A DNA stretch of 63,851 nt, filler included, from an uncultured Methanosarcinales archaeon (GTDB lineage Archaea; Nanobdellota; Nanobdellia; Woesearchaeales; CAYSVS01): NCBI GenBank assembly GCA_964434475.1. It is 6 parts of 6 records of this genome, joined end to end, with 100 filler letters (N's around TTAATTAATTAA, not from the genome) between each part and the next. Parts side by side here need not be neighbours in the genome. Positions count along the whole stretch, not along the records: positions 1 to 12,050 come from CAYSVS010000041.1; 5 more parts are not named here. The stretch is one strand, 5' to 3'. Within the stretch, counting starts at the first letter, position 1, and the number at the start of each line of letters is the position of its first letter. The position numbers and the translations under genes are program-made. Under the pieces are notes generated by a model that was not told the origin of the DNA, searched no databases, and saw only the letters and a program-made list of their open reading frames with translations. Below are positions 1 through 46,825 of the stretch, in pieces.

Positions 1-145
1 AAATATCAAGTAGATATATAGAGTTTACGTTTTTGCTAATTTTGCAAAGTTCCCTCTATCAAATGAGCGAATGCGATACATAAAGAACAAGAAAAAAGGG
101 CAGTTTTCCGTAAAGTTTTAAATATTATTAAACTAAATTCTGTGT

Positions 146-1087
146 GTGGCACAAAAAAAGCAAAAACCTTGGAACAAAGGAAAAAAAGGATTGCAAGTTG
201 CTTGGAATAAAGGCAAGAAAGGAACTCATTTTTCTCCTAAAACTGAATTTAAAAAAGGCTCGGTACCTTGGAATAAAGGTAAAGGAAAATATATGTCGGG
301 AAGTAAAAATCCTTTTTATGGTAAGAAGCATTCAGAGGAAACAAGAAGAAAAATGAGTGAAGCTGCCAAAAAAAGAGTTAACGGAGGAATGTTTGGCAAA
401 AAACATTCTAAAGAAACAAAGAAAAAGATAAGCCATTCATCAAAAGGAAGAAAATCTCCGATGAAAGGAAAACATCATTCTAAAAAATCAAGAGTTAAAA
501 TGAGCCAATCTCAGAAAAAGTGGTTTGAAAATAATAATGTTTGGAATAAAGGAAAACCAATGCGTAAAGAATCTAGGCTTAAGCTTAGTGAAGCGCTTAA
601 AGGAAGAATTCCTTTTAATAAAGGAAAAACAAATGTTGGGATGTATGGAGAAGAAAAAGCTAAGGTTTTAGAGCAATTAAATAGAGAGCATATTTTAATC
701 ATGTATGCTTCAGGCACTTTTCCAAAACAAACAAATACAAAAATTGAAATATATATGAAAAAAGAAATGTTAAAGAGAGGATATCGAGAAAATATTGATT
801 TTTTTCATCAATTTAATTTTAATAATAAATTTATGTGTGATTTTGTATTTCTTAAACAAAAGATTGTTATAGAATGTGGTGGTGATTTTTGGCATGCAAA
901 TCCTGAAACATATGCTGGGAAAGAATTAAAGCAAGCACAATTAAATACTCTAAAAAAAGATAAAGCAAAAAATGCGTATATTTCTAAATTTGATAAAGGT
1001 TCTTGGAAACTATTGAGATTTTGGGAATGTGATATTAAAAAAGATGTTTCTAAGTGCGTTGATAAAATTGAAAAATATCTGAAATAG
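146..1087 (+). CDS. NUMOD3-repeat protein with C-terminal Vsr/DUF559-like endonuclease domain (cassette 1 cargo)
   Basis: Repeated PWNKGK and GKKHSxETxxK(M/I)S motifs; C-terminal CDFVF...VIECGGDFWH...LLRFWECDI. Flanked by IR AGGGCAGTTTTCC (97-109) / GGAAAACTGCCCT (1087-1099). Confidence 0.8.
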   Translation: MAQKKQKPWNKGKKGLQVAWNKGKKGTHFSPKTEFKKGSVPWNKGKGKYMSGSKNPFYGKKHSEETRRKMSEAAKKRVNGGMFGKKHSKETKKKISHSSKGRKSPMKGKHHSKKSRVKMSQSQKKWFENNNVWNKGKPMRKESRLKLSEALKGRIPFNKGKTNVGMYGEEKAKVLEQLNREHILIMYASGTFPKQTNTKIEIYMKKEMLKRGYRENIDFFHQFNFNNKFMCDFVFLKQKIVIECGGDFWHANPETYAGKELKQAQLNTLKKDKAKNAYISKFDKGSWKLLRFWECDIKKDVSKCVDKIEKYLK

Positions 1088-1125
1088 GAAAACTGCCCTA
1101 TCTGTTTTTTTAGCCTAAAAAGATT

Positions 1126-1161
1126 ATTTCACTTAAGAACGCGATCGCTCTTATATACCCT
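1126..1161 (+). repeat. Cassette junction S1 (collapsed form)
   Basis: ATTTCACTTAA-GAACGCGA-TCGCTC-TTATATACCCT. Same 8+6 core as S3 but without the inner arms and loop. Confidence 0.75.
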
Positions 1162-1231
1162 GACTTACGAACGAAATGTAGTGAGGAAGGTGCGTAGCGT
1201 TAGCGGAGCAAGTAAATTTAAGCGTGAAAAA

Positions 1232-1522
1232 TTACTCTCTTTCTTGCATATAGTCTACTACTATAGTTATTATTTTTTTTGTAATTTCATTGCAATTCTT
1301 AAATGAAATTTTATCTAAGATTTCGATTCCATATTTTCTAATTAAGTCACTGATTAAAGCGTGAATAAATGATTGAGTTGCTGATTCAATTTTTTCAAAA
1401 TCTAGAGTTATTTCTTCCTTTTTATTTAACATAGGAATTATTTTATTGATTCTAATATCTCTAGCTATATCTTTATTCTCAGCAAAGCTCCCGACTAAGG
1501 GGTGTAGTTTTATTGTAGTCAT
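1232..1522 (-). CDS. STAS-like domain protein (DUF4325 family; cassette 2)
   Basis: ITLDFEKIESATQSFIHALI motif; overlaps the stop of the upstream ATPase gene. Confidence 0.75.
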   Translation of the reverse strand: MTTIKLHPLVGSFAENKDIARDIRINKIIPMLNKKEEITLDFEKIESATQSFIHALISDLIRKYGIEILDKISFKNCNEITKKIITIVVDYMQERE

Positions 1523-2484
1523 ATAAATCTTGGCCTCCTATATTTTGCTTTTTTTCTTTCTCTCACAGTTTTTATATATGTTTCTCTAATTAAATCTAAT
1601 AAAATTGAAAACTTTTTTGTTGCGTCTAGTGATATGTCTATTCCTACAATGGTTCCATTCCAAAAAGGAAGATTTTCATCTTTAGAATGTCTATCTTTAA
1701 ATGGGTCTGAATATAATCTAATGTGTTTTTGTTCAGGTTTACTTTTTAGTAGTTTATACATGGCATTCCCGCTATATATCACAAAAAAGTCACGATTTAC
1801 CTTAGCAATTGACTTAATAAAAAACAATCCTGCTCCAGCATTAAATTCTGAGCCTCCCTCTTTTGTTGTAGTTCCAGTTATTCCTGGCGTCAGTGCTAGT
1901 TGAATTGCTTTTAAGTGAGTTGATGCAGGATAAGAATAACTGATTGCTTTTTTAATTCCAATACCTGTATCCACTATACCAATCCTAATAGTATTGCTTT
2001 TTTTATAGTATTGGGCTGAAAGTATTGCACCAGAGTTAGATTTAGAGTGTTCCAATACATTTCTCACTAACTCACTGACTATATATTTAATAGGTTCTAC
2101 TTGTTTAGGTTCTAGGTGTAATAAGGGAATCATTTCAGTAATAAAATTAGTCAATTCTGTTGAATTTTTTATTTGTGTTAGAGGTATGAATCGTCCAGCA
2201 GGTTCATGTTTTGTAACTTTTATATTTGATTCAATTCCTAAGAACTTAAATAAACCCATTCTCTCAAGATAATGTTTTGATGTTGCTTCAATTTTTTCAC
2301 AATCTATATTTGAAGATTTTACTTTTAGGCCAAGAGAAGCTAACATAGATAAAACTACTGGATGAATCGAAATCCATTTTTTATTTGCTGTAATTTCTAA
2401 TTTATCGGGGCGAGAACTATCAAATTTTCTAATAAATGGATCAATATTTCCTAAAAATGCACTATTTGGAAGGTGTATTTTCAT
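1519..2484 (-). CDS. Histidine-kinase-like (HATPase_c/anti-sigma-type) ATP-binding protein (cassette 2)
   Basis: N-box SELVRNVLEHS, G1 box IVDTGIGI, G2 box GAGL. Start placed at the ATG at 2484 (MKIHLP). Confidence 0.8.
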   Translation of the reverse strand: MKIHLPNSAFLGNIDPFIRKFDSSRPDKLEITANKKWISIHPVVLSMLASLGLKVKSSNIDCEKIEATSKHYLERMGLFKFLGIESNIKVTKHEPAGRFIPLTQIKNSTELTNFITEMIPLLHLEPKQVEPIKYIVSELVRNVLEHSKSNSGAILSAQYYKKSNTIRIGIVDTGIGIKKAISYSYPASTHLKAIQLALTPGITGTTTKEGGSEFNAGAGLFFIKSIAKVNRDFFVIYSGNAMYKLLKSKPEQKHIRLYSDPFKDRHSKDENLPFWNGTIVGIDISLDATKKFSILLDLIRETYIKTVRERKKAKYRRPRFI

Positions 2485-2586
2485 ATTACCGGGAAATATA
2501 ACAGTATTTATAAATGTTTTGTTTTTACCGGGAATCCCGGGCAATATATGTTTATTCTAATTCCCGGTAAATTCGCGCTTAAATTT

Positions 2587-2622
2587 ATTGAACTTAAGAT
2601 CGGCATGCCTCTTAAGTTCTCC
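2587..2622 (+). repeat. Cassette junction S2 (collapsed form)
   Basis: ATTGAACTTAA-GATCGGCA-TGCCTC-TTAAGTTCTCC; hairpin with a 2-nt bulge. Confidence 0.8.
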
Positions 2623-2738
2623 GCCAGTTACAAAGTTCTGGCGGATTGCGATCGCAAAGTAAAATTTAGGTTTCCAGTCAATTTCTACTGAAGGTAGACT
2701 ATATTTTAGGGAATTCTCTATGTTTAAAAATAAATAAT

Positions 2739-2930
2739 CTATTTTCCTTTTATCTCAGGAACAATGTCCAAAACGATTGTTTTTTCAGAATTTGTTAGTT
2801 CTTGATTTAAAACTAGTTTCTTGATAATATCTTTTAAAACTTTGTTTTCATTAGATAAACTACCAACTTGAGATTGAGCTTCATCTCTTTGACGTCTTGC
2901 AGTTATACCTGGCCATGGATTATTATACAT
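2739..2930 (-). CDS. Small hypothetical protein (cassette 3)
   Basis: 63-aa ORF with ATG start and an upstream GTGA motif; no family recognised. Confidence 0.45.
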   Translation of the reverse strand: MYNNPWPGITARRQRDEAQSQVGSLSNENKVLKDIIKKLVLNQELTNSEKTIVLDIVPEIKGK

Positions 2931-3137
2931 AATATCACTACAATGCTATTAGAAATAATACTTTATAAAACTAATCTAATTAATTTTCATTAAGTCGTTT
3001 ATTTATAAATAAAATCAAAAAGTATAAATATGACATAATACAATTTATGTAATAATGGCAAAAAGGGGATTAGCTAGTTTTCTTAGTAATCATACATTAG
3101 ATTTAAATTTATTCCTCATTTATAATGGGGTAGAAAA

Positions 3138-3827
3138 ATGAGTTCATGTATACGTAATAGAGAAATTTGTACCCCTGTCAATGATTTTATGTCGACATTT
3201 AGGACTGTTCTTGATAGCTTTTTTGTTAAGAAAGATCATACAATCAATGCACAATTAGTTATGAATGAATTAAAACAAAAAAAAATCAATATAGAACAGA
3301 TTAAGATTTTTCTAGATACTTTACCCAAAGAAGAATGGAGCATAAAAACTTTCCTTGATAATATTGAAAAACTTAATGATTTTTTCGGAATAAGTGATGA
3401 GGAAATTAATAAGTGGAGTGTGAATCAATTAAACGAAAAAGATGTCTTGGAAATAAGATTTAGAGTTGTTGTTGAATCTATGATAGAATATACTAGATTT
3501 GCATCTGAATTTTATGATGCTTTAAAATATAATACTAATAACCAACTTTCAATGGCAAAAATTAAATTGCTCAATGAATTAATGATGGTCTTTAAATATA
3601 TAAAAGAACAATCAAAAATGATATCGGAGCATTTTAAAAACCGCAAATACAGTATAAAAAATCTAAATGATTTAAATGTGGCCAGACTACCTATTGAATT
3701 TTTAGTTTTAAGAATTCTTTATATAAGTATGAATCTAGCAAAATCTAATGACAAAATGATTGTACATTATGCCGAACTACTCAGCAAAGAAAGAATTTCT
3801 TTAATATATCAGAAAGTAGTTGCATAA
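3138..3827 (+). CDS. Hypothetical helical protein (cassette 3)
   Basis: 229-aa ORF overlapping the start of the next gene. Confidence 0.65.
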   Translation: MSSCIRNREICTPVNDFMSTFRTVLDSFFVKKDHTINAQLVMNELKQKKINIEQIKIFLDTLPKEEWSIKTFLDNIEKLNDFFGISDEEINKWSVNQLNEKDVLEIRFRVVVESMIEYTRFASEFYDALKYNTNNQLSMAKIKLLNELMMVFKYIKEQSKMISEHFKNRKYSIKNLNDLNVARLPIEFLVLRILYISMNLAKSNDKMIVHYAELLSKERISLIYQKVVA

Positions 3828-4587
3828 AATGAAAACGGCATCTGATGTAAATACAATTTTTGCATATAATGATTCATCTCACTTCTTTCATAGACCAGTC
3901 TGCTTACACATGGCAAAAAATATTCGAGGAAAATATGTTCTATTAGATAAAGTAAAAGCAAATTTCATACACACTTATAGAACATACATGACTGATTGTG
4001 AAATTATTATTGAAAAGTCAGTAAGGGAGTACAAACAAAAATTAAGTTCATCACCTTCTAAAACATATACTCCTTCTCTACTAGCCATATCAAAAAATGT
4101 AGATAGCATTATAGCTGGACATTTAAAAAAAATGTCAAATAATATGGACTTTAACATTAAAGCGATAAGAATATTTATCACTTTAATGCTGAGTGATTAC
4201 TCCATTCCAGAACTTGTAAAGAACGATACTGCTTTAGGCGACTTTAAGGAAAAATACCTACTTAAAGCTGAAGAAAGAGCAAAAGATTCACTAAATAAAT
4301 TTGTAAAGTTTTTCAAATCAAATGAATTTGAATTAATGAATATAGGACAATATGAAACTTATGACGAATGGGTAAAAAAAATAAAAAATAGTAAAAATAA
4401 CAGTATTTTTAAAAATAAAAAAGATTATGAGGACATAACTATTGCTGCAGAACTATTTGCATTTAATTCGGAAATAAGTAAATTAGCATTTTTCACAACT
4501 GATTCCGATTTTCAATACTCAACTCCAAAGATAAGTAAAGAATATAAACAAGAAATCGGAAACATAACGTTAATATCAAATAAATAA
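3820..4587 (+). CDS. Putative PIN-like domain protein (cassette 3)
   Basis: N-terminal SDVNTIF and C-terminal EDITIAAE...FFTTDSDF acidic motifs resemble the PIN fold. Confidence 0.55.
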   Translation: MHKMKTASDVNTIFAYNDSSHFFHRPVCLHMAKNIRGKYVLLDKVKANFIHTYRTYMTDCEIIIEKSVREYKQKLSSSPSKTYTPSLLAISKNVDSIIAGHLKKMSNNMDFNIKAIRIFITLMLSDYSIPELVKNDTALGDFKEKYLLKAEERAKDSLNKFVKFFKSNEFELMNIGQYETYDEWVKKIKNSKNNSIFKNKKDYEDITIAAELFAFNSEISKLAFFTTDSDFQYSTPKISKEYKQEIGNITLISNK

Positions 4588-4671
4588 TATTTACTATTAG
4601 TTTAAAAAATATTAATTTATTTTTGTTAAAAAAGAGAATTCCCTATTTATTTTTATAGAAACCTAAATTTT

Positions 4672-4841
4672 ATTGAACTTAAGAACGCGATTAGGCGATA
4701 GTTTTTAGGGTGCAGAGCTGATTGAGGCAGCCCACAATCCTCTGAGGTTAGGGTGGCGTAGCTGGTAGAATTTGGGAGAACGTAGGCGAAGCTACGAAGT
4801 GGCGAGCCGTAGTGAACCGCCTAATCGCTCTTAAGTTCTCC
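4672..4841 (+). repeat. Cassette junction S3 (full form)
   Basis: ATTGAACTTAA-GAACGCGA-TTAGGCG...loop...CGCCTAA-TCGCTC-TTAAGTTCTCC. Two inverted dif-like sites with 8- and 6-nt spacers. Confidence 0.85.
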
Positions 4842-5110
4842 CGACTACGAAGTGGGAGGGATTGCGAAGCAAAGTTGTGTTTAAGTTCCAATCAATTCGA
4901 GCGTGGCGAGTCAATATGTCCGAAGCACGGGGGGAGTTCAGTTCTTTCAAAAGAGCGAAGCGATACTTCAAGAACAAGAATAAAGGGGAGTTCCTATTTT
5001 TTATATTTCAAGGCAGGGCCATCATTTACAACCCTTTAATAGTGACAAAAACAGAAAGAGTTATAACTGGGCGTAGCTTTATACCAATATTAAACTCATA
5101 AGGTGATAAA

Positions 5111-5944
5111 ATGTCAAAATTAGAAACAATTACTGATAATTTACATGATGGATATAATCAATTAAAGAAAGGCACTTTCAGAAGTTCAAAACAGATTCAA
5201 ACCGAAAGGATGAATAATGAAGAACTAAGAAATAAATACTTTTATACTGCTAATGTAGCTACTTATGAACATGCAAAAGATGGTACTGTTAGTTTTTCTC
5301 TTGGCGATGATGTTGCATTTGAATCCGTCATAGGAAGTGAAAATATAGGACAATTCTGTAATGATTTATTAGAAGAAGGAGACCATACGCTTAGTGATTC
5401 TCAAGTAAAAAAACTATCCGAACTTGATAAGAAACATGTTGTAAAGGTTAAGTATAATGATTTAAGATTAAACGAACATCATAGTCAGCTAAGTTATTTA
5501 GAAATCAATACGACTAATTTTGATTCACTAAATGATTCAGAGAAAGCACTTGTTAATATGGTTCATGGAAATGACTATAAGAAGAAAATGGAAATGCTTT
5601 CTGATTCAGGTATAAAAACCACTAAAATTTATATGTTGTCTGAAAATTATGTTAAAAATAATGTTAAGAAAGGTTCATCTATTGCGCGGGCGTGTTGGCT
5701 CGGTAGTTTCTATTACATTTCCTACTTCGGTGCTAATCTCAATAGTGTGGGTAGTCACGAGCGTCTGCGTGGGGTAAATAATTCCGGCGCAGCCGGTGTA
5801 AATGCGAACGATAGTGAGCAAACACAAAAATATACTGATATTGGAATAATTAAACACTTTGATGAAAATCCAATTAGAGACCTAGATTTAGCTAATAAAT
5901 TAATGGGCAAACTTAATGACTTTTATCAAAGTTTAAAACAGTAA
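5111..5944 (+). CDS. Putative diversity-generating retroelement (DGR) target protein (cassette 4)
   Basis: C-terminal ARACWL...FxA...RLRGV variable-region-like segment rich in NNY codons, followed by a CCGGC-GCA-GCCGG hairpin. AGGTGA RBS upstream. Confidence 0.75.
   Translation: MSKLETITDNLHDGYNQLKKGTFRSSKQIQTERMNNEELRNKYFYTANVATYEHAKDGTVSFSLGDDVAFESVIGSENIGQFCNDLLEEGDHTLSDSQVKKLSELDKKHVVKVKYNDLRLNEHHSQLSYLEINTTNFDSLNDSEKALVNMVHGNDYKKKMEMLSDSGIKTTKIYMLSENYVKNNVKKGSSIARACWLGSFYYISYFGANLNSVGSHERLRGVNNSGAAGVNANDSEQTQKYTDIGIIKHFDENPIRDLDLANKLMGKLNDFYQSLKQ
5684..5796 (+). other. Putative DGR variable region (about 5684-5776) plus cis hairpin (5784-5796)
   Basis: GC-rich stretch within an AT-rich gene. 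About 13 codons are of NNT/NNC form, derivable from AAT/AAC by adenine-specific mutagenesis. Confidence 0.7.
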
Positions 5945-6115
5945 ATATTAAATATTCTTTCTTTTTTATTATTCTTGTCTGGCTTAATTGCTGGGCTACA
6001 CGCTTTTTTATTTTTAGGAACTCCCCTTTTAGAATAATTAAATTTCTTTACTAAGTAAAGTGTAACTGTCCGAAGGACTAGAACTCCCCCTATTTTTTAA
6101 AAGAACTTAAACACA

Positions 6116-6253
6116 ATTGAACTTAAGATCGGAATTATCTGAAGTTTTTTGGTGAGGCAGCCCACACCAAAAAATTTGGGAAACATTCGGTAAATCGCTT
6201 GGCGATTTAGCGTAAGCGACCGAATTTTCCTGATAATTCTTCTTATATCCTTT
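6116..6253 (+). repeat. Cassette junction S4 (full form)
   Basis: ATTGAACTTAA-GATCGGAA-TTATC...loop...GATAA-TTCTTC-TTATATCCTTT. Confidence 0.85.
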
Positions 6254-6471
6254 TCCCATACTCAAGTGTGGGAAAACTGCGTCCGCAGAGTGGAATTTGA
6301 GTTGAAAGCGTAGATTTCTTTTAGTTTTTCAGTATTTAGGGGTTCCGAGTTATTAAGGGGTGAGAAAAAAATCATATTTAGTTTACTAAATAGTATACTA
6401 AAAAGAGAAAGTTTAAATAAAAGATATCCCCAACAACTCTTGTGCGATTGCTGGGGATATGTTCGATTCCT

Positions 6472-6774
6472 TCAAATTAAATCAATTTTGTTTCTGTTTT
6501 TGTAAGCTACTTCATCACGGTATGTTATCCTTTCAAAGGATCCGTTTTGTTCGATTTCTCGTAAATCGGCTTCCACGTCTTTTTTTCTGTTGCGGTATCT
6601 TCTGTAGATTTCCTTTAAAAAAACTACACTGTTGTGATGTTTTAACCTCATCTGAAGGAACCGTTCGACATTTGTTTTCATTTCAAACACCTCATGGTCC
6701 TCCAAACCGGCTTTTTTTCCGTGTAAGGAATCTACGTATGCGAAAAAACAGATATATTTATAAATCTTTCGCAA
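6472..6774 (-). CDS. Hypothetical protein (cassette 5)
   Basis: About 100-aa charged ORF divergent from the HTH gene; start uncertain. Confidence 0.5.
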   Translation of the reverse strand: MRKIYKYICFFAYVDSLHGKKAGLEDHEVFEMKTNVERFLQMRLKHHNSVVFLKEIYRRYRNRKKDVEADLREIEQNGSFERITYRDEVAYKNRNKIDLI

Positions 6775-6832
6775 TTACTGGAACTAAATGGTTCTATTTT
6801 GGAACTATTGCTTATGGAAAAGAGGTGATACC

Positions 6833-7156
6833 ATGAGGAGGCTTGACAAAATGGAGGTCAAAACTGTAGACGATTCGGCTTTTTTTGAGATACTAGGAAA
6901 AAGCCAGAACACTAAAATATTGGAATTATTTATTGAACGAGATAGAGATCAATTTAATTTTAGTGAAGTCGCTGAAATGGCTAATGTGCAAAGGCAAAAA
7001 ATAAAAGAAATCCTGGATATTTATTGTAAGATTGGATTACTTTCAATTGCCAAAGAAAGAAAAAATAGAAAATTGTATGTTTTAAACAATTCGAATGCTT
7101 ATGCTAAGCATATTAAAAAAATATATCAGCTAATATTAAAAGAAAAAAACCTATAA
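6833..7156 (+). CDS. Winged helix-turn-helix protein (cassette 5)
   Basis: KILELF...FNFSEVAEMANV...KIGLL...LYVLN wHTH pattern; GAGGTGA RBS before the ATG at 6833. Confidence 0.75.
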   Translation: MRRLDKMEVKTVDDSAFFEILGKSQNTKILELFIERDRDQFNFSEVAEMANVQRQKIKEILDIYCKIGLLSIAKERKNRKLYVLNNSNAYAKHIKKIYQLILKEKNL

Positions 7157-7269
7157 TTTTTTAATTTTTAATTATTTTAAAGAAAGAATTTCATATGTGT
7201 AGTGTTAAATTATTTGAAGTGCTAGATTTATATATAATTATTATTTTTTATTCTAAAAAGGTAAATGAA

Positions 7270-8088
7270 ATGTTAGGAAGACACCATAGTGCATTGACAA
7301 TTGGAACTATTTTACCATTTTTAATTCCTTTAATATTTGTATCAAATGATAATGCCTTAATTTATGGGTTTACTTTCTTGATTGCGGCATTAATTGGATC
7401 ATTGACGCCTGATGCTGATTGTGGAGGTAATGCAACATTATACTATAGATTTGGTCCTATTGATTGGCTGATGAAAAAAGTAGTCATTAAATTGACCATT
7501 AAACTATATGAACAACCTTATTTGAAAAAACAGGTTCAAGAGGGATATAAAGTTCAAGAAGAGCACAGAGGAATTATGCATGCACCTGCGGGGATTATTA
7601 TCAGTTCTTTGATTTTGACTATTATTGGAGCAATTATCGCATATTTTGTTGAATTATTTAATATTACATATTTAATGATAATTTTTAGTGGTTTGTTGGT
7701 CGGACAATTTTTCCATTTGTTAGAAGATAGTTGTACTGTTTCGGGAATCAATTGGAAATTTCCTAAAGGAAAAAAAGAATTAAGTGGGAATATCTACACA
7801 TTTGATAAATTTCAAGATAAAAAAGATTATAGACCAGATCTATTTTTTGAAATTTTATCTGTATTAAACTTGGCGATATTCTTACTATTAGGCTTAGAAA
7901 AAATGACACTTGCATTATGGCAGTATTATCTAATCGTCTGCTTCACTATACTGATCATATGGCTATTTTTTCTTTGGTTATCTGGTATTTGGTCTGAATC
8001 AAAAGAAATTCCAAAAATATTCTTAATTGACAAGGAGAAATATAAAGAAATAAAGAAAGGATTAAGAAAATCAATAAAACAAAGGTGA
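7270..8088 (+). CDS. YdjM-like membrane metal-dependent hydrolase (cassette 5)
   Basis: MxGxxH, GSLTPDAD, HRGIMH and HLLEDxxTxSG motifs; several TM helices. Confidence 0.85.
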   Translation: MLGRHHSALTIGTILPFLIPLIFVSNDNALIYGFTFLIAALIGSLTPDADCGGNATLYYRFGPIDWLMKKVVIKLTIKLYEQPYLKKQVQEGYKVQEEHRGIMHAPAGIIISSLILTIIGAIIAYFVELFNITYLMIIFSGLLVGQFFHLLEDSCTVSGINWKFPKGKKELSGNIYTFDKFQDKKDYRPDLFFEILSVLNLAIFLLLGLEKMTLALWQYYLIVCFTILIIWLFFLWLSGIWSESKEIPKIFLIDKEKYKEIKKGLRKSIKQR

Positions 8089-8126
8089 ATTGATTCGTTA
8101 ATTTTATATTGTTTGTATGCTATTAA

Positions 8127-8912
8127 ATGAAAATGGTTAAGAAAAAAGATTTAGGACATTTGATATCTCCAGTACTCAAAGCAGGATTGAATATACCTAC
8201 ATGCGGTTTTGCAAGTGCCATAGCAGATGTTTTTGATGCACCATATAAAATTCAAAGACAAAAAAATTTAAAGAATTTTGTTGATCAAACAATAAAAAAA
8301 GTCAAAGAGTTAGATATAAAGATTTCAGAATTAGATTTTAAAAAAAGAATTAATGAGCCTGAATTTATACAATTATTTTCAGAGATTCTTAATAAAATTC
8401 AAAACGAAACAAGAGCGAAGATTAGACAAAGTTACTCAAATTTATTGACTAATTTATTAAAAGAAGAAGCAAATATTAATTTTAATAAAAAAATGTTTTT
8501 CGTAAAACTCTTGGAGAGTCTTAATGAAGATCACATCAAATTGTTGCATATATTTTATAAGGATAGAACTGTAAAAAATAGGCTGAAATTAGATACTTTA
8601 CATCAAAAAATGAACTGTTTCATAAAACGTAAAAGAAAAAAAGGAGACCCTGTTAGTTTATTTACTGATGATAAAAGCAAATATATTACTGTTCTTGATG
8701 AATTAAAAAGCTCATATATAGAATCATTAATAAGTGATTTAGACAGTAAGAAACTAATCAATATTGAAATGGATATTTCTTCGGAAGCTAATGTTGATGA
8801 AAACGAAGGTAATGTTACGGCAGTTGATTCCATTGACAATGATATATCTTATGAATATATGGGAACTCAATTAGGATTTGATTTCTATAAGTCAATAAAA
8901 GAATATAAGTAG
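8127..8912 (+). CDS. Hypothetical protein, possibly Abi-alpha/DUF4393-like (cassette 5)
   Basis: Helical core with YSNLL...FVKLLESLNEDHIKLL and a C-terminal wHTH-like TQLGFDF; resemblance only. Confidence 0.5.
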   Translation: MKMVKKKDLGHLISPVLKAGLNIPTCGFASAIADVFDAPYKIQRQKNLKNFVDQTIKKVKELDIKISELDFKKRINEPEFIQLFSEILNKIQNETRAKIRQSYSNLLTNLLKEEANINFNKKMFFVKLLESLNEDHIKLLHIFYKDRTVKNRLKLDTLHQKMNCFIKRKRKKGDPVSLFTDDKSKYITVLDELKSSYIESLISDLDSKKLINIEMDISSEANVDENEGNVTAVDSIDNDISYEYMGTQLGFDFYKSIKEYK

Positions 8913-9050
8913 TTTCTTATTTTAAAAATTGATAGACCTATTTTTTTACGTATTGTTTTTTTTCTCGCCCCTTACATTATTTTCTTTTGCTTTGCAAAAG
9001 GCTAGATTTACTCGGAACCCCTCATCTTTATTGTTAAGAACTCAAATTCC

Positions 9051-9139
9051 ATTGGATATAAGACCTATTATGCGCATTTCTTTTTCGCATAATGTGCGTA
9101 TAAAGTGGTTATTGCGCATAATTAGGTCTTAAGTGCTTG
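9051..9139 (+). other. Terminal dif-like recombination site S5 (candidate chromosomal attachment site)
   Basis: ATTGGATATAA-GACCTA-TTATGCGCATT (11-6-11, 9051-9078), an extra half-site TTTTCGCATAA (9082-9092) and an inverted copy ATTGCGCATAA-TTAGGTC-TTAAGTGCTTG (9111-9139). Confidence 0.75.
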
Positions 9140-9211
9140 ATTTTGGACGTATGTGTTATAGAATATGTGTGTCCTTTTAGCTCAGTTTAACATTGTTAAA
9201 TTCAGAACTGT

Positions 9212-9616
9212 TTAGTTTAGAAGATTGCTTAGCTCTTGTTTTATGTCAGGTATTCTTGTGCTTTGTATTGTCTTTGTCTGCTGGCGGATGCCATTTTCAT
9301 CTTTGCCGTACTGCGTATATTCTTTATTTATGTGTGTCTTGCATTTTGCTATAAATTTAGTATATCCTATATCTTTGTTAATCTTTATCTCTATTAGCCT
9401 TTCTATGCCATTATTATATTTTATCTTGTATTCTTCTGTGCAAGCTATTGATTTTCTTTTGGATATCTTAACTGCTTCGCAATACTCAGGATTATGTATC
9501 CTTTCGGAATAAAGTCTTTTGATATCCTTTAATGTTTTTACTTTATTGTTTTCAAGATAATTTAATATGCATTTTGCGGCATATTTCATATCTTTCTTTG
9601 TAATCTTTGAATTCAT
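9212..9616 (-). CDS. Hypothetical protein
   Basis: 134-aa ORF; no family recognised. Confidence 0.55.
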   Translation of the reverse strand: MNSKITKKDMKYAAKCILNYLENNKVKTLKDIKRLYSERIHNPEYCEAVKISKRKSIACTEEYKIKYNNGIERLIEIKINKDIGYTKFIAKCKTHINKEYTQYGKDENGIRQQTKTIQSTRIPDIKQELSNLLN

Positions 9617-9714
9617 GTTTTTGATATGGATAGTTTATTTAAAAATGTAGTGTGTTTTTTATTGTATAATCTATCATACAAAACATTATAAATACTCCCT
9701 TAATCAACATACTT

Positions 9715-10959
9715 ATGAAACTTATTGCTGATTTACATATTCATGGAAAATACAGCCAGGCAACTTCTAAAGAGCTTACTATCCCTAATTTAGAGAAATG
9801 GGCAAGGATAAAAGGTGTCAACTTGTTAGGCACTGCTGACTTTACACATCCAAAATGGATAGAGCATATCAAAGAAAACCTAGAAGAGGATGACACAGGA
9901 ATATTAAGAACAAAATCAGGCTTTCCTTTCATGTTACAGACAGAGCTTTCTTTAATCTACAGTCAGGGCGGAAGAGGCAGGAGAGTACATAATATTGTAC
10001 TTGCAAAAAATATAGAGGTAGTACAACAAATAACAGAGGCTTTGTTAAAAATAGGAAGAGTAGATTATGACGGAAGACCTATATTTGGCATGAGCTGCAT
10101 TGAATTTGTTGAGCTTATGAAAAGCATAGACAAAGATATAGAGATCATTCCAGCACACATATGGACTCCTTGGTTTTCTGTATTCGGAAGCAAAAGCGGT
10201 TTTGACACATTAGAAGAATGCTTTGGTGACCAACTAAAACATATACACGCATTAGAGACTGGATTAAGTAGTGATCCTGCGATGAACTGGCGTTTATCAC
10301 AATTAGACAAATATACATTGATAAGCAATTCTGATTTACATTCATTCTGGCCTTGGCGTATAGGTAGAGAAGCAAATATTTTTGAAATCAACAAATTAAC
10401 CTATGATAACATACTCCAGATTCTAAAAACAAAAGAAGGCCTAAAAGAAACTATAGAAGTGGATCCTGCATACGGTAAATATCATTATGATGGTCATAGA
10501 AAATGCAATGTGTGTTTAAAGCCGTCAGAAACTATGAAAATGCAAGGTATTTGTCCTGTATGCAAAAGACCATTGACTATAGGTGTAGAATATAGAGTAG
10601 AGCAATTAGCAGACAGACCGCAAGGATTTAAGCCAAGAAATGCTATTCCATTCAGAAGCTTAATACCTTTATCAGATATAATCTCAAAAATAAAAGGAAG
10701 AGCTGTTACAACTAAGACAGTCTGGGCTGAATATAATAACTTGATCAAGGAATTTGACAATGAATATAATATTCTATTGAATGTAGGGTCCCAGGAATTG
10801 AAGAAAGTGTGTGATGAAGAATTAGCAACAGCGATAGTCAATTCTCGATTAGGTAACATCAAAGTACAGCCTGGATTTGATGGTGAATACGGCACACCTT
10901 TATTTTCAGAAAGCGATAAAAGAGTATTTCATAATATAGAAAAAAACAAAAAGGTTTGA
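9715..10959 (+). CDS. Endonuclease Q family PHP-domain protein (TIGR00375-like)
   Basis: ADLHIHGKYS, GTADFTHP, PAHIWTPW, SNSDLHS, GKYHYDGHRKC and CPVC zinc motif. Confidence 0.9.
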   Translation: MKLIADLHIHGKYSQATSKELTIPNLEKWARIKGVNLLGTADFTHPKWIEHIKENLEEDDTGILRTKSGFPFMLQTELSLIYSQGGRGRRVHNIVLAKNIEVVQQITEALLKIGRVDYDGRPIFGMSCIEFVELMKSIDKDIEIIPAHIWTPWFSVFGSKSGFDTLEECFGDQLKHIHALETGLSSDPAMNWRLSQLDKYTLISNSDLHSFWPWRIGREANIFEINKLTYDNILQILKTKEGLKETIEVDPAYGKYHYDGHRKCNVCLKPSETMKMQGICPVCKRPLTIGVEYRVEQLADRPQGFKPRNAIPFRSLIPLSDIISKIKGRAVTTKTVWAEYNNLIKEFDNEYNILLNVGSQELKKVCDEELATAIVNSRLGNIKVQPGFDGEYGTPLFSESDKRVFHNIEKNKKV

Positions 10960-10965
10960 ATGATT

Positions 10966-11424
10966 TTATTTGACTATAACCTTTCCCTGTATTGCTTGGA
11001 AAGCTGCACTATATATCATAAATTCTCCTGTTTCTTCAAAGGTATAACTGACATTTTCACCAGGCGCTACTCTTTCAAGTTTGAAATTTTTTGAGCTATC
11101 ATAAGGTATGGGTTTGCCTAACAATCTATGCACTGCATGTCCGTTATTCTTCCACATAACTGTAGTTCCTTTGGTAATCTCTATCTCTATAGGGTCAAAT
11201 TGTTTGTTTAAATTTATTTCCCTATATTCTATTTCTTTTGGCTCCTCTATTTTAGGTTCTTGTTTATCTGGCTCAGAAACAGGTTCTTCAGATTCGGTTT
11301 CAGGAATAATCTCTGTTGGTACAGTCTCTTGTTCAGGTTCAACTATCGGCTCTTCAACAATCTCTTGTGGAGTACAGCCTACAATAAACATCATTAAAAT
11401 TAATCCTGTAAATATTCTTTTCAT
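10966..11424 (-). CDS. Lipoprotein with cupredoxin-like domain
   Basis: Lipobox IVGC, acidic Pro-rich linker, FDPxxIEIxKGTTVxWxN...H. Confidence 0.75.
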   Translation of the reverse strand: MKRIFTGLILMMFIVGCTPQEIVEEPIVEPEQETVPTEIIPETESEEPVSEPDKQEPKIEEPKEIEYREINLNKQFDPIEIEITKGTTVMWKNNGHAVHRLLGKPIPYDSSKNFKLERVAPGENVSYTFEETGEFMIYSAAFQAIQGKVIVK

Positions 11425-11460
11425 ATTATTATCACCTAAAAAAATAAAAGAAAAAAAGAT

Positions 11461-11931
11461 TTATTCTGTAACAGTTACAATAAGTCTGTTTCCATAGACA
11501 ACATCCATGAAAGTAAACTCGCCAGCAGTATCTAAAGGTATTTCAGTTATGTCTCCTTTGACCATTGACGCACTTCTGAAAATATCGCTGTCTCTTGATG
11601 AGATTGCGTGTCTGTTCTCATCCATAACCTTTAAGACTAAGCTTCCGCCTTTTTTGACTGTAACTTCTTCAGGTTTAAATCCTGATCTTGTTATTGTAAC
11701 ATCGACACCTTCTGGTGTTTCCATTTCTTCTGCTGTAGTTTCTTCTGTTTCTGGTGCTGCTTCCTCTTGAGGAACTTCTGGTGCTGTTTCTTCTGCCGGA
11801 GCTTCAGGTTGAGCCACAGGTTTTTCTGGTTGAGTAGTTTCAGCTGGTTCTGTTGCTTGCTTCTGTGCACAGCCAACTAGTAAAACAACCATTATAATTG
11901 CTAGTAGATATTTAATCTTCATCAAATTCAC
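11461..11931 (-). CDS. Lipoprotein with cupredoxin-like domain
   Basis: Lipobox LVGC, acidic linker, GFKPEEVTVKKG. Confidence 0.75.
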   Translation of the reverse strand: MNLMKIKYLLAIIMVVLLVGCAQKQATEPAETTQPEKPVAQPEAPAEETAPEVPQEEAAPETEETTAEEMETPEGVDVTITRSGFKPEEVTVKKGGSLVLKVMDENRHAISSRDSDIFRSASMVKGDITEIPLDTAGEFTFMDVVYGNRLIVTVTE

Positions 11932-12050
11932 CTCTGCGTTTTTTGTGATTTTATATATAATTATCTATCCTCTTTTATAAACTTTGTGTTTTTTAGGGTT
12001 CATCCGGAATAAGGTTCAAATAATATTTTAAATATGAGATTAATCATTCT

Positions 12051-12150
12051 NNNNNNNNNNNNNNNNNNNNNNNNNNNNNNNNNNNNNNNNNNNNTTAATT
12101 AATTAANNNNNNNNNNNNNNNNNNNNNNNNNNNNNNNNNNNNNNNNNNNN
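12051..12150. other. Artificial contig linker
   Basis: N44-TTAATTAATTAA-N44 (stop codons in all six frames). Confidence 0.97.
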
Positions 12151-23624: not shown

Positions 23625-23724
23625 NNNNNNNNNNNNNNNNNNNNNNNNNNNNNNNNNNNNNNNNNNNNTTAATTAATTAANNNNNNNNNNNNNNNNNNNN
23701 NNNNNNNNNNNNNNNNNNNNNNNN
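23625..23724. other. Artificial contig linker
   Basis: N-run with TTAATTAATTAA. Confidence 0.97.
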
Positions 23725-29859: not shown

Positions 29860-29932
29860 GCCTCTGTAGCATAGTAGCTATTGCGTCGGTCTCGTAAACC
29901 GAAGGTCGGGAGTGCAACTCTCCCCAGAGGCT
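29860..29932 (+). tRNA. tRNA-Thr(CGT)
   Basis: Acceptor stem GCCTCTG/CAGAGGC, anticodon arm TCGGT-CTCGTAA-ACCGA, T arm GGGAG-TGCAACT-CTCCC; no encoded CCA. Confidence 0.92.
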
Positions 29933-30264: not shown

Positions 30265-30292
30265 ATTTCGCATAATAGGTGTTATATTCAAT
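30265..30292 (-). other. Second dif-like recombination site
   Basis: Minus strand ATTGAATATAA-CACCTA-TTATGCGAAAT; 24/28 identical to S5. Confidence 0.78.
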
Positions 30293-30428
30293 TTTTGGAT
30301 TACTTATTTTTAGAAAGAGAGAGGGGCTTAGTCCTTCGGACATTTTGCCTTTTACTTCGTAAAAGAATTTATAGGAAGGGGCGTCAAGATAGTCTTTTTC
30401 TGCGAAAAAGAAATTTATTAGGGGCGTT

Positions 30429-30920
30429 TTAAACATAAAAATAGATTATTAAACTCCATAAAATCAAAATCAAATTTGTTATTGATGTGTAAAACCAAGG
30501 AAATTTATATTTTCTTATTCTACAAAACCAAATATAAACTAGCAAAATCCACTCTACAAATATCAATATTAAATATTCTTTTACAATAGGAAAAACCCAA
30601 TTCAAAAATAAACCAAAAAGCAAAACTAAGAAAAAACCTACTACTAACTCTAACAGAAAAAACACAAAACCTTTCTCTTTCGTAGAAAATAGATGATTTC
30701 CAAATATTTTACTATAACCTTTACCACCCTCATACACAATTCCCGGAATCATCGCTCCAATTGTTAATGTAAAAAACCATACTAAAAATGTCAATAAAAC
30801 ATTTATATGAGAAATAATTGTATCTTTCATTAACCATAAAAGTAAAACATAAACTCCAGTAATGAGAAAAATAACAAGTTCAGTCCACCATTTAATTTTT
30901 TCTTTATTATTTTTTCCCAT
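30429..30920 (-). CDS. Hypothetical membrane protein (about 5 TM helices)
   Basis: Hydrophobic 163-aa ORF, last gene of the RM operon. Confidence 0.7.
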   Translation of the reverse strand: MGKNNKEKIKWWTELVIFLITGVYVLLLWLMKDTIISHINVLLTFLVWFFTLTIGAMIPGIVYEGGKGYSKIFGNHLFSTKEKGFVFFLLELVVGFFLVLLFGLFLNWVFPIVKEYLILIFVEWILLVYIWFCRIRKYKFPWFYTSITNLILILWSLIIYFYV

Positions 30921-30927
30921 AGTGATC

Positions 30928-31410
30928 TTATAATTTCGGCGTCAAACTGGAATAATCAATACAATCTCTCGCTTTATCCCACTTCGCTATTTGCATAAAT
31001 TTATTTGTTTTTGTTCCAAACTTCAATAAATCTTCTCTTTTCAAGACATTAATAATATGTGATAATCTGCCTAATCCTTTAGAAGAAACTAAAAAAGATT
31101 CTATTGGATCTATTAATTGAGTGTATCCCCAAAGCTGTCCTAAATCTTTGAGAGTTAAATCTGTGTCTTTCACTTCAACAAAAACAAGTTTAAACTCATC
31201 GCCTCTTTTCAAAATTCCTACAATATCTACTTTTATTTGTAAGCCTATTGCTTCTTTACATTGGATGCCTTTACTTTTCAAAACAACATCTAAGTTTCTT
31301 CTTGAAGTTTCATAAGTAGTCTGAACTGTATAACCTTTGTATTTATCAGTTAAGTAATTCTGCAACCATTCTTTTATTTCAGGATAAAGTTTTTCTTCTT
31401 CTTTACTCAT
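30928..31410 (-). CDS. Small PD-(D/E)XK nuclease-fold protein
   Basis: EEKLY...VDIVG...FVEVK...GQLxGY motif. Confidence 0.7.
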   Translation of the reverse strand: MSKEEEKLYPEIKEWLQNYLTDKYKGYTVQTTYETSRRNLDVVLKSKGIQCKEAIGLQIKVDIVGILKRGDEFKLVFVEVKDTDLTLKDLGQLWGYTQLIDPIESFLVSSKGLGRLSHIINVLKREDLLKFGTKTNKFMQIAKWDKARDCIDYSSLTPKL

Positions 31411-32314
31411 CGTAACCTAACTCCTTTGACATATCTTTCCAACTATCAAAATGTTTTCTAACTTTTGTGGGTAATTTCGTACTTTTTTCTTCTGGATGTT
31501 TTGGTTTTTTCCTGTTTATTTCCTTAGTCTCCCAATAAAATTTATGATGTGCTTCTGAAATTGGTTTATCCTTATATTTTTTAGAATCTTTTGATGCTTC
31601 TTTCCAATTTTTTCTGTTTAAGTCAGCAAATCTCTTTAGAAGCTTATTTTTATGGTCAATATTAAAACCTACTTTTTCAAATTCTTCTGCCCATACTTTT
31701 ATTTGATGTTCTTTATTCCAAAATTCTTTTGAACCTTCATTATATTTTTTCAAATTTGGATCAACTATGTTTGGATGAGCAAACCTAATTGTTTGAACTG
31801 GAACATCTAATTCTTTTAGCAAATTCGCAATATCTATGCACAAATCCCAATTAACCATTATTTCAACATAAACTCTATTTTCATAATCTTTCCATGCAAC
31901 ATTACTTTTTCTTATATGAGCTGTTACGTCGGCAATTCCTCTTAAAAATTCTAATTTTATGTCTTTTGTTGCAGAAAATATTTCTGTTGGTATTCTTACA
32001 TCTCTCCAGCTTACATGGTTTTTCAAATATGTGTTAATAGTTCTTATCAAATAATCTCCATTTGGTTTTGAAAAAGAAATATGGGCGATGTTTGGTCTTG
32101 AGGTGTCCCATTCCATATCTGCTCCAACAAGAATTTTTAATCTTCCAACAATATCTAATAAACTTGACTTTACTGATTGTTGGGTATTCTCTCCTTCAAT
32201 CACTAAATTTTTATGTGGAATATCTATGATAATCTCCGTATCTCTATTTCCTCTAATTATTTGTCCTTTCCCGACAATCATTCCCAATAAATAAGCTATA
32301 TCTGCATTTAACAT
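31403..32314 (-). CDS. LAGLIDADG-like two-motif protein with degenerate catalytic residues
   Basis: IAYLLGMIVGKG and IPxxIF...EFLRGIADVTA. Confidence 0.6.
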   Translation of the reverse strand: MLNADIAYLLGMIVGKGQIIRGNRDTEIIIDIPHKNLVIEGENTQQSVKSSLLDIVGRLKILVGADMEWDTSRPNIAHISFSKPNGDYLIRTINTYLKNHVSWRDVRIPTEIFSATKDIKLEFLRGIADVTAHIRKSNVAWKDYENRVYVEIMVNWDLCIDIANLLKELDVPVQTIRFAHPNIVDPNLKKYNEGSKEFWNKEHQIKVWAEEFEKVGFNIDHKNKLLKRFADLNRKNWKEASKDSKKYKDKPISEAHHKFYWETKEINRKKPKHPEEKSTKLPTKVRKHFDSWKDMSKELGYDE

Positions 32315-32318
32315 TTTT

Positions 32319-33119
32319 TCACTTCCTAAATATGAGTATGAACTCATGAACTTTATTTACTCTAAATACAAATGGATAACCAAGAGGACGCATATTATTA
32401 TACTCTTTTTGTCTATCCCAAATAATCATATCATCTAATTCAAAACCAATTTCTTGCATTTTGTTTATCATATCCATATGAAATGGATAAAACTTTGCTT
32501 TTTTTCTAATGTCCATTACCACAACGATACAATATTTTCCTTTCTTTAAAACTTTATAGACGCCTTCAAATCCTGTTTTGAGTTTATTTAAGAATTCTTG
32601 ATAATCTGCGATATTTCCCAAGTCATCTTTTGAATTACTATAATTTCTTATTTCTTTTCTATCGGCTGACCTTTTGGCGTTTAGAATATCCCAATATGGC
32701 GGAGATGTAATAACTAAATCAACAGAATCTTCTTTTAATGTTTTAGGAATATCAAAAATAGTTTTATTATAAATTTCTGGCTTAATTAAATCCTCTGGCT
32801 TTTGTTCTAAATTTAACTGAGTTTCTTTTATTCTATTTTCAGATAATTTAATGTATTCTTTAGAAAGTTCAAATCCTATTCCTTTTCGACCTAATTTATA
32901 GGCAGATACGACCGTACTTCCACTTCCTAAAAACGGATCTAAAACAACTTCCCCTTTATTTTTAGTGTGAATTTGAATTAATCTTGATGTTAATTGAGTT
33001 GGAAACATAGCAGGATGTTTTAATTTCCTTTCTCCGTTGGTTTTTTCAATATCTTTCCAAATACTAAAAGAGTATTGTAACCATTCTTTCCCTGTTAAAT
33101 TATTCATTCGTTCTCCCAT
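32319..33119 (-). CDS. Amino-DNA methyltransferase (probably N4-cytosine)
   Basis: HPAMFP, DPFLGSGST, TSPPY. Confidence 0.9.
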   Translation of the reverse strand: MGERMNNLTGKEWLQYSFSIWKDIEKTNGERKLKHPAMFPTQLTSRLIQIHTKNKGEVVLDPFLGSGSTVVSAYKLGRKGIGFELSKEYIKLSENRIKETQLNLEQKPEDLIKPEIYNKTIFDIPKTLKEDSVDLVITSPPYWDILNAKRSADRKEIRNYSNSKDDLGNIADYQEFLNKLKTGFEGVYKVLKKGKYCIVVVMDIRKKAKFYPFHMDMINKMQEIGFELDDMIIWDRQKEYNNMRPLGYPFVFRVNKVHEFILIFRK

Positions 33120-33120
33120 T

Positions 33121-34788: not shown

Positions 34789-34928
34789 TATTTAACCTCT
34801 TTTTTTACTTCTTTTTCCATATAATTTTGAAATTGTTTGGAAACAATCCATCCTTTTTTATCGCACTGCTCTTTAAATTTATCATAAATTTCAGAATCCA
34901 CAAATAAAGTTACTCTTTTTTTAGCCAT
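34788..34928 (-). CDS. Ribbon-helix-helix regulator (46 aa; not in the ORF track)
   Basis: MAKKRVTLFVDSEIYDKFKEQCDKKGWIVSKQFQNYM; TAATG overlap with the MTase start. Confidence 0.75.
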   Translation of the reverse strand: MAKKRVTLFVDSEIYDKFKEQCDKKGWIVSKQFQNYMEKEVKKEVK

Positions 34929-34939
34929 CATCATCCCCT

Positions 34940-34957
34940 TTATGTAAGCTTACATAA
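34940..34957. promoter_or_regulatory. Perfect 18-bp palindrome, candidate operator of the RM operon
   Basis: TTATGTAAGCTTACATAA between a TATA-like tract and the RHH start. Confidence 0.55.
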
Positions 34958-35197
34958 GATTATTAACAAACATCTATATAAATCTATCGCACACTTGTCT
35001 AGTGGTAAGTGTAAAAGACGCCCCTAAATGTTCTTTTCAGAAAAGAACCAAAACAAGACGCCCCTTCTATCTTCTTTTTTTAGAAAAAAGAAGCAAAAAA
35101 TCTGACGCCCCTCTCTCGTCCTTCGGACATATACACTCCCTGCGGTCGAATTTATCAGTAATCCAAAAACTCTAAAATTTTCCTACGGAACGTTGCA

Positions 35198-35297
35198 NNN
35201 NNNNNNNNNNNNNNNNNNNNNNNNNNNNNNNNNNNNNNNNNTTAATTAATTAANNNNNNNNNNNNNNNNNNNNNNNNNNNNNNNNNNNNNNNNNNNN
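35198..35297. other. Artificial contig linker
   Basis: N-run with TTAATTAATTAA. Confidence 0.97.
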
Positions 35298-46725: not shown

Positions 46726-46825
46726 NNNNNNNNNNNNNNNNNNNNNNNNNNNNNNNNNNNNNNNNNNNNTTAATTAATTAANNNNNNNNNNNNNNNNNNN
46801 NNNNNNNNNNNNNNNNNNNNNNNNN
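46726..46825. other. Artificial contig linker
   Basis: N-run with TTAATTAATTAA. Confidence 0.97.

Follow-up and report, generated by a model that had tools for sequence, protein, structure and literature searches.

What separates the short junctions of an archaeal gene-cassette array from the long ones, and how might one form have given rise to the other? We addressed this question in a window of 63,851 nucleotides (nt), the whole stretch of DNA analysed here (assembly GCA_964434475.1), which consists of six metagenome-bin contig pieces joined by N44-TTAATTAATTAA-N44 linkers, so that gene order across the linkers carries no meaning. The host is a Woesearchaeota-like DPANN archaeon, marked by the genes for ribosomal protein L10e, NOG1, Trm1 and NFACT, and the G+C content of the window is 32%. 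Five junctions, here called S1 to S5, were located on the first contig piece (positions 1-12050), of which positions 1-9139 probably represent the distal portion of an integron-like gene-cassette array of a DPANN (Woesearchaeota-type) archaeon. An earlier note on this DNA had proposed that S1 and S2 are exactly collapsed versions of the full junctions. We consider it likely that both are worn-out sites of a folded type that imitates the Xer recombination site dif, in an integron-like array, and that the hairpin interior, that is the L boxes and the inner module, has been deleted from them. The junctions were as follows.

1126..1161, plus strand: S1, collapsed junction; left arm ATTTCACTTAA (1126-1136), 14-nt centre GAACGCGATCGCTC (1137-1150) followed by TTATATAC, right arm TTATATACCCT; L boxes and inner module absent
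2587..2622, plus strand: S2, collapsed junction; left arm ATTGAACTTAA (2587-2597), centre GATCGGCATGCCTC (2598-2611) followed by TTAAGTTC, right arm TTAAGTTCTCC
4672..4841, plus strand: S3, full junction; left arm ATTGAACTTAA, right arm TTAAGTTC, 148-nt centre (4683-4830) reading GAACGCGA-(TTAGGCG...CGCCTAA)-TCGCTC, in the order 8-nt left central region, L'' TTAGGCG, branched inner module, L' CGCCTAA, 6-nt right central region
6116..6253, plus strand: S4, full junction; 116-nt centre (6127-6242), a three-way junction, reading GATCGGAA-(TTATCTGA...CCTGATAA)-TTCTTC; right arm TTATATCC, of dif type
9051..9139, plus strand: S5, terminal (T-type) site at the array end; ATTGGATATAA-GACC-TATTATGCGCA ... 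ATTGCGCATAA-TTAGGTC-TTAAGTGC

When the bracket, from the inner TTA to the inner TAA, was removed from S3, the remaining flanks were identical to the S1 centre at 14 of 14 positions, and the corresponding flanks of S4 were identical to the S2 centre at 11 of 14 positions. The strings on which the earlier note relied are thus present: S1 equals the S3 core without its bracket, and S2 has the 8+6 geometry of a collapsed S4-type site. Both keep just the outer (R) arms and four central-stem base pairs per side, and lack the L boxes and the module found in S3, S4 and the family consensus, as in attC loss in integrons, here with no fusion of reading frames. The agreement between S1 and S3 exceeds chance, yet it provides no evidence that S1 descends from S3 itself, because GCGA/TCGC is the commonest stem base in the family.

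Relatives were sought in 400 genomes sampled from the phylum, referred to below by G numbers, with L numbers for loci. The collapsed S1 core, GCGATCGC, recurs in three other genomes (G225, G134 and G083) and the S2 core, GGCATGCC, in G112, while a full-length counterpart of the S2 core is present in G157 (CATCGGCA-TTAACCG..CGGTTAA-TGCCTG).

Architecture and folding of the junctions

All sites follow a common plan. The left arm ends in TAA, and the first base after it is paired with the final base of the centre; next come two bases that stay unpaired and a G+C-rich stem of 4 base pairs (bp). Full sites add inner arms (TTA.../...TAA) and a branched module, after which the order is mirrored to a right arm starting with TTA. 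The outer arms are of the archaeal dif type, ATTGnnnnTAA / TTAnnnnn. Folded as single-stranded DNA and compared with shuffled sequences, the full sites S3 and S4 reached -29.9 kcal/mol (z -3.1) and -31.8 kcal/mol (z -7.4), and the terminal site S5 -19.0 kcal/mol (z -5.8). The values for the collapsed sites were -7.2 kcal/mol (z -3.8) for S2 and -2.7 kcal/mol (z -1.2) for S1, the latter being indistinguishable from shuffles.

A consensus fold was derived from 11 sequences, namely ten full sites from other genomes and S4. Of its 27 predicted pairs, 18 showed compensatory double changes, and on the left arm 2 nt remained unpaired. The order R''-L''...L'-R', the compensatory pairs and the unpaired left-arm bases correspond to the architecture of integron attC; the relatives read TAAC...GTTA, which is the inverse-core/core pattern of attC, and the array has the paired variant TAAG...CTTA. 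The full junctions are therefore best described as probable attC-like folded sites, in which a single-strand hairpin would imitate the dif core by means of the R box, a central stem from which 2 nt bulge out, and the L box.

It was also noted that the pair beside the arms is G:C (TAAG...CTTA) in all five array sites (1126-9139) and C:G (TAAC...GTTA) in every relative examined as well as in a second cassette platform of the window. This array-wide paired change, at or beside the presumed crossover point, is one of the 18 compensatory changes in the consensus fold.

The resemblance to dif extends to the arm sequences. In the available text of Cortez et al. (2010; PMC2958812), the dif oligonucleotide of Pyrococcus abyssi starts with ATTGGATATAA and ends with TTATATCTAAA; the left arm of S5, ATTGGATATAA, is identical to this dif arm at 11 of 11 positions, and the right arm of S4, TTATATCC, is close to the right arm of P. 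abyssi dif. The half-sites and the arm sequence fit the 11-6-11 geometry of dif, and the centres of S1 and S2 are 14 nt long.

Three other genomes, G221 (L140), G149 (L144) and G337 (L154), contained arrays built solely of plain dif-like sites with an 11-nt arm, a 6-nt centre and a second arm, and each of these arrays ended beside a xerA gene. The 6-nt centre of these sites resembles the right-hand central region of full sites, and it is possible that this one family shows a graded transition between duplex sites resembling dif and folded sites resembling attC. We also noted chimeric full sites at positions 15565-15660 of L148 (G043) and 10248-10400 of L145 (G208), in which the inner arms come from different sub-families and are unpaired, which suggests that exchanges may take place within the module. 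Strand exchange may fall to the left or to the right of the centre; the centre type seems to be linked to hairpins downstream of the centre, although the sample is small and confounded by lineage.

Short sites in other genomes and the loss of the hairpin

A BLAST search with positions 4640-5000 identified junction or leader matches in 102 of the 400 genomes at no more than 85% identity; this tally counts the unpublished genome G244, whose sequence was otherwise left unused. Collapsed sites were searched for with the pattern ATTG-4-TAACATC-(2 to 14)-TGTTA, which gave 86 matches in 41 of the 400 genomes compared with 10 in the reversed control. Of the 85 matches listed, the one from G244 and nine non-palindromic, chance-like ones were dropped, and the remaining 75 were tallied by hand. 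The length of the core between ATC and TG was 2 nt at 5 sites, 4 nt at 6, 5 nt at 3, 6 nt at 21, 7 nt at 2, 8 nt at 24, 9 nt at 11, 10 nt at 1 and 11 nt at 2. The 8+6 geometry of S1 and S2 corresponds to the 8-nt core, the commonest class with about a third of the sites; another 21 cores were shorter by 2 nt and 11 were longer by 1 nt.

Other searches were less productive. The two-arm pattern of the present array, in the AAG/CTT form, matched 3 of the 400 genomes, fewer than the reversed control (14), and a 14-base arm pattern gave chance matches alone on the genome contigs, the lone Woesearchaeota match lying inside an Sm-protein gene. Pattern scans of viral contigs returned 0, 0 and 1 matches, the single one being a chance match inside a phage gene. 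An inner-module pattern run on metagenome contigs picked out three loci, which were taken as chance; L122, which was read, is G+C-rich and has no surrounding junction.

A chance resemblance might in principle lie behind the short sites, or they might be artefacts of assembly, given that the window comes from a metagenome bin of short contig pieces and that junction repeats break assemblies. Both suggestions are most improbable. The Logan assembly of the source run, which is independent, reproduces positions 55-3246 with zero differing letters and zero gaps, so S1 and S2 are not the product of a single assembly. Furthermore, the class occurs far above the control in 41 of the 400 genomes, also on contigs of 1.0-1.1 Mb, and the stems should be much shorter than the word sizes used in assembly.

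Nearly all cores were palindromes, and they could be ordered as a nested series with shared stem bases: G|C, GC|GC, GCG|CGC and GCGA|TCGC, and likewise for GGAA|TTCC. Some retained scraps of the inner arms, as in GCGA-A-TCGC, GGAA-A-TTCC and GGGC-TAA-GCCC. The short sites are therefore well supported, on these sequence comparisons, as deletion derivatives of full sites, since insertion into a shorter precursor can explain neither the nesting nor the scraps. The opposite direction, in which short palindromes would be ancestral and the long brackets would be small mobile hairpin elements inserting at the centres, might be suggested by the motifs GAGGCAGCCCACA and AATTTGGGA, which the inner modules of S3 and S4 have in common, and by the recurrence of module motifs across genomes. 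However, the bracket stems differ by compensatory changes and have no fixed ends, and in the loci that we examined the module occurred at junctions only; we regard insertion as very improbable.

How, then, was the interior lost? The earlier note had suggested that the loop may have been removed enzymatically by a tyrosine recombinase on the inner (L) arms. In this view the enzyme would cut at the boundary of either arm and take out the loop exactly, in a regulated process or a side reaction that locks cassettes. In its favour, the 8-nt core, which ends at the arm boundary on either side, is more frequent than any other class (24 of 75) and is present in both S1 and S2, and the inner arms resemble recombinase arms (TTA.../...TAA), S5 even having ATTGCGCATAA. 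The claim of a precise cut did not hold up in the wider sample: 51 of the 75 sites have other endpoints, and in the GGGC...GCCC family the exact product, GGGCGCCC, was never seen among the 75 cores, which have GGGCCC or GGGC-TAA-GCCC instead. Variable deletion endpoints were what the earlier note itself had named as speaking against its proposal, and core lengths do vary from 2 to 11 nt, though symmetrically.

The polarity of the reaction points in the same direction. By the established rule for tyrosine recombinases, cleavage takes place after the arm on whichever strand has that arm 5' to the centre, so that just one of the two S1-type endpoints on a given strand could be a cleavage position. 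Exchange between like-oriented arms, the outer left (R'') and the inner right (L'), would give a 6-nt centre; enzymatic removal thus predicts the 6-nt class, which is that of the G221, G149 and G337 arrays, and not S1 or S2. A single exact enzymatic cut is therefore unlikely.

Endpoints that vary and yet are symmetric argue against one precise cut and for a loss of the hairpin that is driven by its structure rather than by chemistry; plain slippage between direct repeats would not give such symmetry. Replication or repair may cross the base of a partly unzipped hairpin. If the hairpin were unzipped by n bp at that moment, n stem bases would be kept on each side, and perfect palindromes of variable length would result. 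A recombinase bound to the L boxes could act as a roadblock, which would make the arm boundary the commonest endpoint.

Terminal site, recombinase and position along the array

The array stops at S5, which has no leader downstream. Its type can be written xACC-TATTA. A search for terminal-type sites (arm, CACC, TATTA) gave 20 matches in 15 of the 400 genomes and 0 in the control; the tally counts the unpublished G360, which was not fetched, and 19 copies were examined. In 9 of these 19, all in other genomes, a xerA homologue starts 100-170 nt downstream of the site. Since sites of this type adjoin xerA in relatives, S5 would be an orphan counterpart of a recombinase-proximal site, and a dif-like anchor, in line with the dif-like site of the earlier note, is a fair description of it. 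Three of the array-adjacent recombinases scored 236, 222 and 192 bits against the XerA model NF040815 (cut-off 220). Against the integron-integrase model TIGR02249, the same three proteins aligned in two stretches only, with 165-187 bits (cut-off 265), and lacked the middle of the model; no IntI-type integrase with the IntI-specific domain was found in the window or among these three.

In the window itself, no tyrosine recombinase was detected by Pfam among 66 open reading frames (ORFs), or by tblastn with two XerA proteins at 1e-8. With five junctions at 1126-9139 and no recombinase on the 12,050-nt piece, the array qualifies as an integrase-less attC cluster (CALIN), provided that its sites count as attC. 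The xerA-side terminal site lies at the R' end of the array, as opposed to attI, which lies at the R'' end. The sites are not limited to one per chromosome: they stand in arrays, and the terminal type alone occurs four times in G176.

We then compared the order of collapsed (C) and full (A) sites, read from R'' to R', in four mixed arrays. The order was CCAAA in the present array (exact rank p 0.1), CCC followed by seven A (CCCAAAAAAA) in G208 (p 0.008), and CCCCA on contig 68 of G134 (p 0.2); in G112, with 16 C and 7 A, the last five sites were A and the other two A were interspersed (p 0.0018). Full sites thus lie towards the terminal end in all four arrays, in agreement with the statement in the earlier note that the collapsed sites are those farthest from S5. 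The note had also called for a tabulation of site class against distance from the dif-like site in other genomes; 9 of the 10 junctions at most three places upstream of a terminal site were full and 1 was collapsed (G356, G270, G315, G148, G157, G398 and G176). Within the limits given below, the reading of the farthest sites as the oldest fits this gradient. A plain sorting process, with cassettes staying behind once their sites are dead, would fit it equally well.

A site that has lost its L box and nearly all folding energy would probably recombine poorly or not at all. If new cassettes enter at the terminal site, by analogy with attI, cassettes flanked by worn sites could not leave and would come to lie farthest from that site. 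It is plausible that collapsed joints fix old cassettes in place, as the earlier note had suggested with its idea of locking. For the loss of site sequence as such, there is a precedent in class 1 integrons, where cassettes become fused when attC is lost in part or entirely, according to the available text of that report (PMC4670013).

The cassette ends bear on whether the short sites still work. Every cassette has private inverted repeats just inside both ends, and the four variable arm bases at its start and end were exact complements in 32 of 65 cassettes from 11 arrays. In the control, which compared the two arms of the same junction, this was the case in 7 of 65, and shuffled partners gave a mean of 3.3 and a maximum of 10. 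It was also noted that the cassette between S1 and S2, which carries a gene pair on the opposite strand, is the one with mismatched arms.

The short palindromic sites could alternatively be functional, either as minimal hairpins or as duplex dif-like cores from which a small palindrome is looped out. Extrusion of the core would leave C-ATC and T-G, a 6-nt spacer, and in genomes with a G+C content of about 30% the cores remain rich in G+C and perfectly palindromic. Several observations that weigh against worn-out sites would fit here as well. In G112, 16 of 23 junctions are collapsed, so that whole arrays seem to be built of short sites; 11 of 18 cassettes between two collapsed sites, in several arrays, keep perfectly matched arms; and cores of identical sequence are found in genomes distant from one another (GGAATTCC in 8 or more, GCGATCGC in 4), so that collapsed cores could spread as such and need not arise anew each time. 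On the other hand, short sites have lost the L box, which covaries in full sites, the folding energy of S1 is near that of shuffled sequence, a core range of 2-11 nt is hard to reconcile with a fixed geometry, and short sites avoid the neighbourhood of the terminal site (1 of 10). We consider functional short sites improbable.

The interpretation of S1 and S2 as worn-out sites must be set against further points. The proposed bypass would have to take place at hairpins without flanking direct repeats. The four mixed arrays were picked after the loci had been fetched, and the G112, G208 and G134 stretches contain no terminal site or xerA, their terminal end being read from site polarity. One junction beside a terminal site, in G176, is collapsed, and no recombinase is present anywhere in the window, the 2.9 kb after S5 on the contig piece included. 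Among contigs of the source run, none spans the bracket of S3 or S4, which is uninformative on mixed populations since contigs drop rare variants; a search of sequencing runs found the stretch in the probable source run only. Among homologous cassettes there were just three weak protein matches, too few to set a cassette with full sites against its counterpart with collapsed ones.

A broader and more tentative proposal is that DPANN archaea may have integron-like cassette platforms that rely on a recombinase of the XerA type and have a terminal site dedicated to them, in which spontaneous collapse would act as a one-way ratchet that fixes cassettes and leaves arrays ordered by age. If this ratchet exists, each loss would turn a mobile cassette into a fixed chromosomal gene, with mobile genes near the recombinase and domesticated ones far from it, a built-in route from the mobile gene pool to the core genome that could be read from sequence. 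If the collapsed junctions are dead, they would mark exchangeable as opposed to fixed accessory genes in tiny symbiotic archaea, and the order of full and collapsed sites would serve as a relative clock along the array. The three site forms with common arms, namely the plain dif-like core, the short palindrome and the long folded hairpin, would also bear on the origin of folded attC-type sites and of integron integrases from Xer/dif.

Leaders, related systems and cassette payloads

Downstream of each right arm lies a leader, about 170 nt long, that consists of small hairpins with covarying stems and C-GNA-G loops. The leader and cassette-end features in the array were the following.

4831..5004, plus strand: conserved structured leader, identified by nhmmer matches, compensatory-change alignments and BLAST matches; it has two copies of GGGGAGTTC
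53-109, 2611-2704 and 6240-6306: shorter leader copies
2661..2674, plus strand: cassette-private inverted repeat AAAATTTAGGTTTC, just inside the cassette start, which pairs with GAAACCTAAATTTT at 4658-4671

In the cassette at 2661-4671, GAAACCTAAATTTT is located directly before S3, and a second, inner repeat pair is also present. Loops of the C-GNA-G type are characteristic of highly stable mini-hairpins of DNA, and this suggests folded DNA, not RNA, for the leader. Candidate roles include accessory sequences for the recombinase, an origin of second-strand synthesis or a promoter. A search of the window against Rfam gave tRNA alone at the gathering score, and positions 1-10000 gave nothing meaningful at E up to 5. 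We noted that this non-coding leader retains about 80-85% identity across the phylum-level sample (102 of 400 genomes; loci L125-L159), unlike the sole cassette protein with a match in the fetched loci, which has drifted to 28% identity.

Archaeal integrons and CALINs have been published, with Nanoarchaeota included, and as far as the available text of that study describes integrons (Ghaly et al. 2022; PMC9668308), the present arrays agree with them in several respects. The cassettes stand in tandem between imperfect inverted repeats that fold on one strand into R box, stem with unpaired bases and L box; the relatives have the canonical AAC...GTT; the first bases of a cassette complement its last ones; and many arrays have no integrase nearby. 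Unlike integrons, the adjacent recombinase in relatives is of the XerA type, without the IntI-specific insertion, and is located at the R' end beyond a special terminal site, whereas intI and attI are at the R'' end. Furthermore, a conserved and structured leader opens every cassette, long inverted repeats are private to each, and the sites of the present array read AAG...CTT.

The closest published analogue of the collapse, going by the available text of the class 1 integron report (PMC4670013), is the rare fusion of cassettes through attC loss, in which the recombination site between two cassettes is lost and the cassettes are joined. Such fusions are called rare there (PMC4670013), whereas the loss is frequent here, as in the G112 array, and follows a positional gradient; what remains is a symmetric, palindromic stump between two intact outer arms. 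The archaeal Xer/dif system, with XerA and an 11-6-11 dif site in the available text of Cortez et al. (2010; PMC2958812), is similar in its arm sequences and in the dif geometry shared by the half-sites of full junctions and the sites with a 6-nt centre. It differs in that a genome here has numerous sites, which form arrays and flank accessory genes, and in that the central region of most sites is interrupted by a palindrome or hairpin; we saw no sign here of a role in resolving chromosome dimers. A literature search turned up no published account of arrays run by XerA, of the leader or of the collapse of hairpins, although the supplements of PMC9668308 could list some of the arrays as CALINs.

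Comparison with other modular systems is also of relevance. In IMEX and in the dif modules of Acinetobacter plasmids, gene modules without a recombinase of their own are bounded by plain duplex Xer-type sites, and the present cassettes are similar in that they lack their own recombinase and lie between Xer-type sites. Neither folded sites nor leaders nor a collapse of hairpins are known to us from these modules.

The cassette payloads and the linkers in the window were located as follows.

146..8912: cassette payloads overall, including a small winged helix-turn-helix-like ORF
146-1087: NUMOD3 and Vsr/DUF559 endonuclease payload
1232-2544, minus strand: HATPase and DUF4325 (STAS-like) gene pair
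2739-5944: ORFs without an assigned family
7195-8088: YdjM payload
8127-8912: Abi_alpha payload
12051-12150, 23625-23724, 35198-35297, 46726-46825 and 57899-57998: linkers between contig pieces

The payloads at 146-1087 and 1232-2544, the latter being the gene pair between S1 and S2, are of a defence or selfish type. It was further noted that positions 1-55 lie on a 1105-nt contig in the source run, with a word depth of 292 compared with about 9 elsewhere, and are part of a very high-copy community repeat; other contigs of three runs contain junction and leader pieces that are 85-95% similar.

The second cassette platform covers positions 30273-35197 on the minus strand of the contig piece 23725-35197. 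Leader pieces were identified at 35113-35173 and 30330-30377, and a terminal-type site begins at 30292 on the minus strand, with the canonical TAAC as opposed to TAAG in the first array. Its payload consists of two DNA methylases (Eco57I/N6 type and N6_N4) and three unassigned ORFs, and the platform is located about 360 nt from a tRNA-Thr gene (29860-29932).

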